Shown: piece after piece, positions 8,233 through 10,896 of the stretch
Position numbering within the stretch: position 1 is the stretch's first letter
Layout of the letters: each line of letters opens with the position of its first letter
Source: Vulcanimicrobiota bacterium
GTDB lineage: Bacteria > Vulcanimicrobiota > Vulcanimicrobiia > Vulcanimicrobiales > Vulcanimicrobiaceae
Direction of reading: 5' to 3'
Assembly: GCA_963820825.1 (NCBI GenBank)
Contig: CAWGBN010000006.1
Span: 416,001 to 480,000 of the forward strand
Length of the DNA stretch: 64,000 bases
The notes under the pieces: model-generated
Told to the model about the DNA's origin: nothing
What the model saw: only the letters and a program-made list of their open reading frames with translations
Database searches by the model: none
Position numbers and translations under genes: made by a program

Positions 8233-9615
8233 CTACACTCCTGATCCGGTAACGGTGGCACGATGCGACATGATTGAAAGGCTCTCTTTGAGGACGCGGC
8301 AGACGTAATCGGCCTCTTCCTCGGTGATCGTCAGCGGCGGCTCGATGCGAATCGTTCGCGCGTTGACCAGCGTTCCGGAGACGAGCACGCCGCGATCGAG
8401 CATGCGTTTGCCGAACTCGAATCCCGTCTCGTGGTCGCGGAACTCGATCGCCATCAAGAGTCCCTTGCCGCGCGCGTCGACGACGAGATCCTCGTGGCCT
8501 GCGATCCCTTCGCGTATCCCGGCGAGCATGCGTTCTCCCATGACGGCGGCGCGTTCGGGAAGGCGGTCTTCGATCAATACGTTGATGGTGGCGAGCGCCG
8601 CGGCGCAGGCGAGCGGATTCCCGCCGAACGTCGACGTGTGCAGGAACGGATTGTCGAAGAGCCGCGAGAAGATCTCGCGCCGTCCGACCACCGCACCGGC
8701 CGGAACGACGCCGCCGCCGAAGGCCTTGGCCAGACACATCAGATCCGGCGCAACGCCGTAGTGCTCGCAGCAGAACATCTTGCCGGTCCGGCCCATTCCG
8801 GTCTGCACTTCGTCGAGAATGAAGAGCGCCCCGAATTCGTCGCAGAGCGCGCGAACGTTCGGCAGATAATCGTCGTCGGGAATATTGACGCCGCCCTCGC
8901 CTTGGATCGGTTCGAGCAGCACCGCGCCGACGTCTTCGCCGACGGCGCGACAGGAGGTCATCATGTCACGAAGTGCCGGGATATCGTTGAATGGAACGTG
9001 CTCGATGTTCGGCAGCATCGGTCCGAACGGGCGCCGGAACTCGGCCTTCGCACTGGCCGAGAGCGAGCCGTAGCTCTTGCCGTGAAATCCTTTGGTTGCG
9101 GCGACGATCGTCTGCTTTGTCGGATCGTACGCCCGTGCGAGCTTGAGCGCACCCTCCACCGCCTCGGTTCCGCTGTTGCAGAAGAAGCTGAACTCGAGAC
9201 CTTCGGGCGTCAGCAGCGCGAGCGCCTTGGCGAGCATCGCGCGAAGCGGGTCGAGCAGGTCTTGGCTGTGGAGCGGCTGGCGCCGAAGCTGATCGCTGAC
9301 GGCTTTGACCACCTTCGGATTGCGATGGCCCACGTTGAAGATGCCGAAACCGCCGAGGCAATCGATGTAGATTCGTCCGTTCAGGTCGCGGTACGAGTTC
9401 GGTCCGGCATCCGCCCACTCGACGACCGCGCTCGCGTTACGCCCGTCGCTTGCCTTGCGGTACTCCAAGAATCCGGGATTGACGTGCTCGCGGAACGACT
9501 CTACCGTCTCGCGCGCGATCCACGCCGCGTCCTCCGGCGTGATCTCGCTCTTTGCGATGAGTTCTAGGACGATCTTCGTATACTCGTATACCTTTTGTTC
9601 TTTCTCACCGGTAAT
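8233..9615 (-). CDS. patA: Putrescine aminotransferase (class III PLP); start uncertain (ATT at 9615, or GTG at 9625 with a frame change)
   Basis: [67 protein letters not shown] motifs closely match PatA/YgjG. The open frame extends 49 codons upstream of the ORF-track TTG. Confidence 0.9.
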
Positions 9616-9621
9616 TTTCGG

Positions 9622-10896
9622 TCACCTCGTAAAAACGTCGTGCAGACTCTTTTGAAGAATGGCGAGCCCCTCTGAGAGCTCCTCGTCGGTGGCGACGAGC
9701 GGGACGAGAATGCGAATCACGTTGCGCTTGCCGGCCATCAGCAGCAGCAATCCGCGCTCGCGGGCGGCCTCGACGATCTCCGGCGCACCCGAGGATAGCT
9801 CGATCGCAAGCATCGCGCCGAGTCCGCGCACGTCCTCGATCTGCGGAAACTCGCGCTGCATGGCGCGTAGTGCCGAGCCGATGCGCTCTCCCATCGCGCG
9901 GGCGCGCGCCAAGAACGCATCGTCGATCGTCTCGAAGACCTTCAGCGCCGCGGCGCAGGCGACCGGATTTCCGGCGAACGTTCCGCCCAGGCCGCCGGGC
10001 TCCGGCGCGTCCATAATCTCGGATTTTCCGACCACGCCCGCGAGCGGCAGGCCGCCGCCGATCGATTTCGCGACCGCGACGAGATCGGGTTCGATGCCGT
10101 ACTGCTCCGACGCGAAGAACGTGCCGGTGCGGCCGAATCCCGTCTGAATCTCGTCGGCGATCAACAGGATGCCGCGTTCCTCGGTGATGCGCCGCAGCTC
10201 GGGCAAGAAATCGCGCGGCGCCGGTACGAAGCCGCCTTCACCGAGAACCGGCTCGACGATTACGGCGGCGACGCGATCGGGAGCGACCACCGCCGAAAAG
10301 AGCTCGTCCAGGGCCTCGAGCGCGCGAGCCGTCGTCATGCCGTGATGCTCGTACGGAAACGGCGTATGGTAAATCTCGCTGCAGAAGGGTCCGAAGTGCT
10401 GCTTGTACGGCTCGTTCTTCCCCGTCATCGAGAGCGCGAGCAGCGTGCGGCCGTGGTAGCCGTGGGTAAAGGCGACGATTGCGGGACGGCGCGTGTATTC
10501 GCGTGCGATCTTGACCGCGTTCTCGGTCGCTTCGGCTCCGGTCGAGAGCAGCAGCGTCTTTTTCGGCGACGGCCCCGGGGCCCGGCGGTTCAGCTCTTCG
10601 GCGACCCGGACGTACGGTTCGTACATGGCCACTTGAAAGCAGAGGTGCGTGAACCGCGCCGCCTGTTCGGCGATCGCCGCGACAATCTCGGGGTGCGCGT
10701 GTCCGGTATTGAGCGTGCCGATGCCCCCGATAAAGTCCAAGTAGCGGCGGCCGTCCTCGTCCCAAAGGGTCGCGCCGCTCGCGCGCTCGACCCAGATCGG
10801 ATGCGCGGTCGCGACGCCACGCGCGACGCTCTCGCGGCGGCGTTGCGCCAGGGAGCTGTCGGCGACGGGAATTGAGGGTTTTTCGCGTACGGTCAT
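9622..10896 (-). CDS. gabT: 4-aminobutyrate--2-oxoglutarate transaminase (GabT/PuuE family)
   Basis: LDFIGGIGTLNTGH, TGAEATENAVKIAR, EPVLGEGGF, DEIQTGFGRTG, GGLGGTFAGNP. Confidence 0.9.
   Translation of the reverse strand: MTVREKPSIPVADSSLAQRRRESVARGVATAHPIWVERASGATLWDEDGRRYLDFIGGIGTLNTGHAHPEIVAAIAEQAARFTHLCFQVAMYEPYVRVAEELNRRAPGPSPKKTLLLSTGAEATENAVKIAREYTRRPAIVAFTHGYHGRTLLALSMTGKNEPYKQHFGPFCSEIYHTPFPYEHHGMTTARALEALDELFSAVVAPDRVAAVIVEPVLGEGGFVPAPRDFLPELRRITEERGILLIADEIQTGFGRTGTFFASEQYGIEPDLVAVAKSIGGGLPLAGVVGKSEIMDAPEPGGLGGTFAGNPVACAAALKVFETIDDAFLARARAMGERIGSALRAMQREFPQIEDVRGLGAMLAIELSSGAPEIVEAARERGLLLLMAGKRNVIRILVPLVATDEELSEGLAILQKSLHDVFTR

Follow-up and report, generated by a model that had tools for sequence, protein, structure and literature searches.

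Comparative evidence for translation of patA, a putrescine aminotransferase gene of Candidatus Eremiobacterota, from a conserved AUU codon

The gabT-patA junction and the start of patA

The 64,000-nucleotide (nt) stretch of contig CAWGBN010000006.1 analysed here (assembly GCA_963820825.1, a Vulcanimicrobiota bacterium; the whole stretch is called the window throughout) carries on its minus strand an operon in which patA, encoding a putrescine aminotransferase, is the middle gene, preceded by a gabT-like gene and followed by an aldehyde dehydrogenase gene (Table 1). The host is an uncultured soil bacterium, of a lineage that we take to be represented by metagenome assemblies only. Our subject is the start codon of patA. 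A first-pass annotation of the sequence had noted that the gene lacks a canonical start codon in frame, and had offered three ways of reading this: initiation at an AUU codon behind a Shine-Dalgarno (SD) sequence, an antizyme-like +1 frameshift out of a short upstream frame, or one surplus A in the sequence. The junction letters that it gave for the minus strand, ...ACG AGG TGA CCG AAA ATT ACC GGT GAG AAA GAA..., match the sequence exactly. As it had described, the gabT stop codon shares the patA reading frame, the 51 codons after this TGA contain no ATG, GTG or TTG, GAGGTGA stands 6 nt before an ATT from which a product of 460 amino acids (aa) would be made, and the mini-open reading frame (mini-ORF) GTG ACC GAA AAT TAC CGG TGA is present.

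There is thus an in-frame stop two codons upstream of the patA ATT, and the first canonical codon in frame is a TTG 49 codons downstream of it. The SD sequence GAGGUGA forms a strong duplex (Table 1) with the standard anti-SD sequence, CACCUCCUUU, against which SD duplex energies were computed. A stretch of 49-51 coding codons devoid of start codons is not rare in the source genome, with a probability of about 0.15 derived from the summed frequency of ATG, GTG and TTG (3.7%). Hence, the start-less run is unremarkable by its length, and the case for a non-canonical start rests on the adjacent in-frame stop, the conservation of the start-less part as protein and the conservation of the junction.

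The product of patA is assigned as a putrescine aminotransferase of the PatA/YgjG type from an equivalog score together with full-length similarity, its substrate specificity being predicted. It scores 680.6 bits against NF008570 (cut-off 612), in an alignment that begins at residue 7 of the frame; with a second model, TIGR03372, it scores 630.7 bits, under the cut-off of 658.65. The E. coli PatA structures 4uox and 5h7d match the protein at E about 1e-173, the alignment covering residues 16-452 of the ATT-started form. Across the class to which the source genome belongs, the 49-residue N-terminal part is conserved as protein (VYEYTQRVL.LI...WITRETV..FR.HVNPGF).

These observations bear on the gene call in public databases, in which translation begins at TTG 9468, the enzyme has 411 aa and the 49 codons before the TTG are left untranslated. 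This TTG is the first canonical codon in frame, and the form that it yields is the one held in public protein collections: the exact 411-aa PatA is present there and the 460-aa form is absent, and the cluster of the 411-aa protein lists two relatives, of 394 and 422 aa. However, the part that would be lost is conserved across the class and is aligned both by NF008570 (from residue 7) and by the PatA structures. Because the latter align from residue 16, a start at TTG 9468 would remove 49 conserved, structured residues. The TTG itself falls within a conserved motif, GF-L-EY, and the relatives at loci L006, L017 and L023 lack any canonical codon ahead of the NPGF motif. We consider the shorter protein very improbable; ordinary gene finding would then be cutting 49 residues off PatA.

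Table 1. Features of the gabT-patA junction and its operon (positions in the window)
Feature	Position	Strand	Remarks
gabT-like 4-aminobutyrate aminotransferase gene, first in operon	9622..10896	-	424 aa; ATG 10896, stop TGA 9624-9622
SD sequence GAGGUGA of patA	9622..9628	-	contains the gabT stop codon; duplex of -10.2 kcal/mol
Out-of-frame mini-ORF, GTG to TGA	9605..9625	-	considered incidental to the GTG within GAGGTGA
AAA, positions -3 to -1 of the patA start	9616..9618	-	AAA in 90/98 AUU/AUC junctions
ATT (AUU), inferred start codon of patA	9613..9615	-	comparative evidence; ATT or ATC in 98/130 junctions
patA, putrescine aminotransferase	8233..9615	-	460 aa from ATT; stop TAG 8235-8233
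TTG, first canonical codon in frame	9466..9468	-	start in the public gene call; yields the 411-aa form
Aldehyde dehydrogenase gene, third in operon	6699..8231	-	ATG 8231-8229, 6 nt after AGGAG 8242-8238

Conservation of the junction among related genomes

We collected the patA 5' junctions of 130 species-representative genomes of the same class, within Candidatus Eremiobacterota, none of them unpublished, and sorted them by one fixed classification rule. The start is ATT in 87 of the 130 junctions and ATC in 11, whereas ATG, GTG or TTG is found in 31 and the type is unclear in 1. The first-pass annotation had suggested aligning this junction in relatives, and the AUU/AUC layout indeed recurs in 98 of 130, spanning 23 of the 29 sampled genera. 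Its position is all but fixed: in 92 of the 98 AUU/AUC junctions, the ATT or ATC lies exactly 40 codons before the motif F[RK]xH[VIL]NPG[FYW], which served as the anchor for start distances. More divergent loci of the class have ATT in another 9 of 12 cases, and in other classes of the phylum all 3 anchored loci have ATG at -39.

An in-frame stop stands no more than three codons upstream of the ATT or ATC in 75 of the 98 junctions. In the relatives this stop is TGA, TAG or TAA, and it is doubled at L060 (tga tag) and L094 (tga taa). It immediately precedes AAA ATT at L071, L075, L096 and L110, and the ATT itself at L085 and L150; at these last two loci, therefore, nothing upstream of the ATT can be translated in the patA frame. 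Between the stop and AAA stands a codon that is free to vary (CCG, TCG, TTG, GCA, CGG, CAG, ACC, TAG or TAA), as is expected of an untranslated spacer.

The nucleotides next to the start are far more constant. AAA precedes it in 90 of the 98 AUU/AUC junctions, and among the 93 distinct junction strings positions -3, -2 and -1 are A in 88, 92 and 92, which makes them the most conserved positions of the region; conservation of the start codon within this set of 93 holds by construction. The SD positions, -13 to -7, are also conserved across the 93 strings. In the source genome 34% of Lys codons are AAA, and Ile is encoded by ATT in 20% and by ATC in 72% of cases, so that the 87:11 ratio of ATT to ATC at the patA start is the opposite of genomic Ile usage. 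This pattern indicates that selection is working on the nucleotides and not on a Lys-Ile dipeptide. The SD sequence is stronger where the start is weak, with a mean duplex energy of -9.5 kcal/mol in the 98 AUU/AUC junctions versus -6.3 kcal/mol in the 31 canonical ones.

The same counts speak to the third proposal of the first-pass annotation, that one A of GAAAATT is surplus through an assembly or sequencing indel and that the true start is the GTG on the gabT stop, giving MTEITGEK.... A run of four A residues is error-prone in long-read assemblies, and a subclade of the genus does have a start that overlaps the TGA as ATGA or GTGA (L014-L020, L059, L063 and others). However, 98 of the 130 species genomes, assembled independently of one another, have the identical frame relation and AAAATT, and the in-frame stops of relatives are of all three kinds and include the double stops. 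Moreover, contigs of two other metagenome runs span 9531-9681 and 9578-9642 with 0 gaps and no letters listed as inserted or deleted (depth 2-3). A search of sequencing runs listed no RNA run with this locus, and the DNA run that matched best contained 0.11 of the sampled words. The recurrence of AAAATT in independent assemblies and the two gap-free bridging contigs refute the surplus A, to which we give next to no chance.

Within the genus, the overlapping start constitutes a second architecture: in 14 of 15 canonical-start junctions, ATG or GTG is followed by A. We interpret it as the classical overlap of 4 nt between the patA start and the gabT stop, on a by-eye check of L018 only.

A GTG at that site is also where the frameshift reading begins. 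Ribosomes would start at GTG 9625, translate the mini-ORF and shift by +1 at CGG-UGA-G into patA. The +1 frameshifting of eukaryotic antizyme is stimulated by polyamines, and patA resembles antizyme and prfB in having a short upstream frame that ends in UGA beside the main frame. The mini-ORF exists in the window, and a mini-ORF in the -1 frame runs past the ATT in 67 of the 98 AUU/AUC junctions, in 58 of them from the GTG inside GAGGTGA; in E. coli, according to sections of PMC7177335, polyamines stimulate the +1 shift of prfB as well. However, the mini-ORF is missing from 31 of the 98 junctions, and elsewhere its end is variable, with stops at +2 (11 junctions), +5 (10), +8 (38), +11 (4) or further. 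The last codon and stop form more than 20 different contexts, including CGG TGA, TCT TGA, AAT TAG, AAT TAA and GGG TGA. Unlike prfB and antizyme, then, patA has no conserved shift site, nor does it have a nearby stimulatory SD. GTG 9625 lacks an upstream SD of its own and is accounted for as part of the SD consensus, and a frameshift leaves the invariant AAAATT unexplained. An antizyme-like shift thus finds no support in the absent or variable mini-ORFs, and its chances appear slim.

Since the gabT UGA lies in the patA frame and the genome encodes tRNA-Sec, a further possibility is that read-through or selenocysteine insertion at this UGA produces a GabT-PatA fusion. The in-frame relation has a simpler source: the SD geometry places the TGA 9 nt before the ATT. 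Against a fusion, the in-frame stop of relatives may also be TAA or TAG, or double as at L060 and L094, gabT and patA are in different frames in the canonical-start subclade, and about 50-100 nt part the two genes in family f3. RNAalifold, run on 28 junctions, returned 0 conserved pairs around the patA start, and hence no conserved hairpin downstream of the UGA; a search of 8000-11400 against Rfam at E up to 1 gave no match. A fused product, like the frameshift, seems barely credible.

Evidence for initiation at AUU and its possible regulation

The recurrence of AUU/AUC in 98 of 130 junctions, its position, the preceding AAA and the upstream stops strongly support the first of the three proposals, initiation at AUU behind GAGGUGA. 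We conclude that patA is, on strong comparative grounds, translated from the AUU at 9615-9613 behind a strong SD sequence. The explanation that best fits the data as a whole is that the middle gene of the operon has an SD-led AUU start and an output that would be sensitive to initiation factor 3 (IF3), and we put its probability at roughly 0.88. The position of the SD-led AUU and its long conservation are the part of this explanation that the aligned sequences establish. The start has the characteristics of the infC and pcnB type: there is no canonical alternative, the SD sequence is at a functional spacing, and the AUN codon is conserved beyond what codon usage would give. The retention of AUU/AUC, a strong SD and AAA in 23 of 29 genera, beside neighbouring genes that start at AUG, is better explained by selection for a start that is weak or can be tuned than by drift.

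Initiation could proceed as follows. GAGGUGA would hold the 30S subunit, or else a ribosome fresh from termination at the gabT UGA, and the normal initiator tRNA (anticodon CAU) would pair, mismatched at the third codon position, with the AUU that follows after 6 nt, perhaps assisted by the A-rich, unstructured AAA spacer. The initiator tRNA of the source genome is ordinary, with anticodon CAU, and a special initiator tRNA for AUU was rejected on this ground. AUU/AUC is kept across the longer spacer of family f3, and its use is therefore independent of termination-reinitiation.

According to sections of PMC5499595, added IF3 represses AUU-led mRNAs most strongly, and the infC start is AUU or AUC; parts of PMC2268962 describe that initiation at non-canonical codons is inhibited by excess IF3, as is SD-less re-initiation. 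Since IF3 rejects AUU initiation complexes in E. coli, PatA output should be IF3-dependent: by extension from infC and pcnB of E. coli, IF3 would proofread the AUU, and output would be lower than that of the AUG-led neighbours and would track IF3 activity. Ions and polyamines, by stabilising near-cognate initiation complexes, may affect it too. Only the middle gene of the operon has a weak start, gabT and the aldehyde dehydrogenase gene both starting at ATG. A plausible benefit is that PatA, the producer of reactive 4-aminobutanal, would be kept scarcer than the enzyme that removes it.

Several points weigh against this interpretation or temper it. ATG, GTG or TTG stands at or beside the same site in 31 of the 130 relatives, so the AUU is dispensable. 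The relatives are related genomes rather than independent samples, and the counts overstate their statistical weight; a few junctions, L087, L024, L104 and L116 among them, are ambiguous under the classification rule. An AUU mRNA reached 42-74% of the level of an AUG mRNA in some E. coli extracts (as given in sections of PMC5499595), so that a low output does not necessarily follow from an AUU with a strong SD. The regulatory meaning suggested for patA is carried over from E. coli alone.

The source genome has other genes with starts of this kind. Its infC gene, encoding IF3 (outside the window at G000:C6:47403-48044, plus strand; loci L131/L244), has an ATA start 6 nt after GGAGGT, directly following an in-frame TGA plus one codon; the Pfam IF3_N match starts with residue 7, ahead of the first canonical codon at 15, and a non-canonical start is expected for infC. 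The start of patA has the same geometry, an SD sequence, 6 nt and AUN. The two are also alike in that an SD-led non-canonical AUN start is conserved over a long evolutionary distance. They differ in that patA has a conserved AUU in one class only and encodes a metabolic enzyme; because PatA is not a proofreading factor, no autoregulatory loop is expected.

A second gene, pckA (phosphoenolpyruvate carboxykinase; outside the window at G000:C5:77345-78919, plus strand), has an ATT start 6 nt after GAGGAGG. Pfam PEPCK_ATP matches from residue 13, and no canonical codon follows until 32 codons further on. The 23 genus genomes examined (loci L248-L270) all share ATT CTT TCG; the start is ATG in 6 of 6 loci of families f2 and f3. 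Hence, a weak start of this type is not peculiar to polyamine catabolism. Gene finders restricted to ATG, GTG and TTG will mis-call both patA and pckA across the candidate phylum.

Initiation at AUU is an established mechanism, known from infC, pcnB and ebpA, and patA is an unusually well-conserved further case. To our knowledge, few non-canonical starts apart from that of infC are conserved over many genera, and among the papers that our searches listed we found none that joins AUU initiation to patA or to this phylum. The poly(A) polymerase I gene of E. coli, pcnB (named in PMC5499595), and ebpA of Enterococcus faecalis (PMC4447247) have AUU (ATT) starts by which their expression is limited or attenuated. 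Like patA, these are genes other than infC with the rare AUU start; in the portions of the sources cited, however, they appear as single-species or narrow cases, whereas the AUU/AUC of patA is found in 23 of 29 genera, within an operon and 6 nt past a stop.

The first-pass annotation had also raised the idea of a polyamine-sensing switch on a polyamine-degrading enzyme. In E. coli, fMet-tRNA binds better to the weak codons UUG and GUG when polyamines are present (sections of PMC7177335), which makes a polyamine feed-forward on PatA possible. Class 2 of the polyamine modulon (E. coli cya, cra, spoT and others; Table 1 of PMC7177335) comprises genes with an inefficient start codon and a normally placed SD, and an AUU 6 nt after GAGGUGA conforms to that description. 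The members known from this source use UUG or GUG, in contrast to the AUU of patA. PatA degrades polyamine, and by analogy would close a feedback loop. In its fullest form the idea would make the AUU start a read-out of proofreading stringency: more free polyamine, or less IF3 activity, would stabilise the near-cognate AUU complexes and give more PatA, putrescine would be degraded, and together with pckA a small regulon tuned by IF3 or polyamines would result. If this were so, a translational feedback loop would have been kept in 23 of the 29 sampled genera of one class of Candidatus Eremiobacterota, and the ATT-led patA and pckA would be the catabolic and gluconeogenic genes of the regulon. 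The ATT start of pckA makes a polyamine effect less specific and argues against a device peculiar to polyamines in this genus. We regard the fullest form of the idea as unlikely.

Operon neighbours, genome scans and other observations

The GabT-like protein is a class-III aminotransferase that scores 503.1 bits against TIGR00700 (cut-off 506.65) and 503.4 bits against NF005692 (cut-off 724); because both scores are below cut-off, the gabT-like label applies at family level only. The start codon of the aldehyde dehydrogenase gene comes just after the patA stop. Its product has aminobutyraldehyde/betaine-aldehyde dehydrogenase-like matches, to TIGR01804 (610 bits) and to the aminobutyraldehyde dehydrogenase model NF010000 (485.7 bits), both below cut-off. 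The gene order is stable: all 30 loci with flanks have patA next to gabT, and in 29 of these 30 the dehydrogenase gene comes next, the other one being truncated. At one locus of family f3 (L025, in genome G040), the gabT-patA spacer is about 95 nt and holds two G+C-rich, hairpin-like inverted repeats before the patA SD and ATT, seen by eye in the printed sequence. Divergent from the operon, a 1192-aa ORF occupies 10945-14523 on the plus strand of the window, with no NCBIfam match at E up to 1e-10.

We scanned the source genome in three ways for further non-canonical starts. A first scan, of SD-led ORF starts, gave 6 ATT candidates against 109 ATG. A second, stricter scan gave 4 ATT, 2 ATC and 2 ATA against 54 canonical starts, with a per-trinucleotide rate of ATT like that of other rare triplets. 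In the third, 22 of 1255 coding-like ORFs had at least 25 start-less coding-like codons, few of them with a strong SD-led AUN. None of the three scans revealed an enrichment of ATT, and with filters as insensitive as these about 1% of genes could still have such starts.

A Pfam check of 16 candidates found an extension to be needed only for pckA, infC and an MGDG-synthase-like gene. A canonical start is possible for TatC, an acyl-CoA dehydrogenase, rho, UvrC, Amt and a C39 ABC transporter, which were set aside as cases requiring AUN. The MGDG-synthase-like glycosyltransferase gene (G000:C1:13600-14736, minus strand, outside the window) has a possible ATT start, with the Pfam match from residue 14 and the first canonical codon at 57. 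The rho gene (G000:C9:83336-84568, minus strand, outside the window) has a possible ATC start behind AAGGAG; the first canonical codon comes 16 codons later, and the stretch in between scores as coding.

The tRNA-Sec gene (anticodon TCA) lies on the plus strand of the window at 51130-51223 (G000:C6:467130-467223), and the organism therefore probably makes selenoproteins. Outside the window, at G000:C8:455475-455550 (minus strand), ARAGORN calls a tRNA-like element with a four-base anticodon (ctga), possibly a spurious prediction or else a tRNA whose anticodon loop has 8 nt. At 22030 in the window, where the first-pass annotation had suspected another 1-nt frameshift, two open frames of the plus strand overlap within 21640-24577: one at 21640-22275, with no Pfam match, and one at 21953-24577, which encodes BNR/Sortilin-type repeats. 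Finally, patA genes of the Eremiobacterota type, with 81-88% identity, occur in records titled Babeliales, Acidiferrales or Verrucomicrobiia (L161, L167, L212 and L226); these records are probably mislabelled bins.

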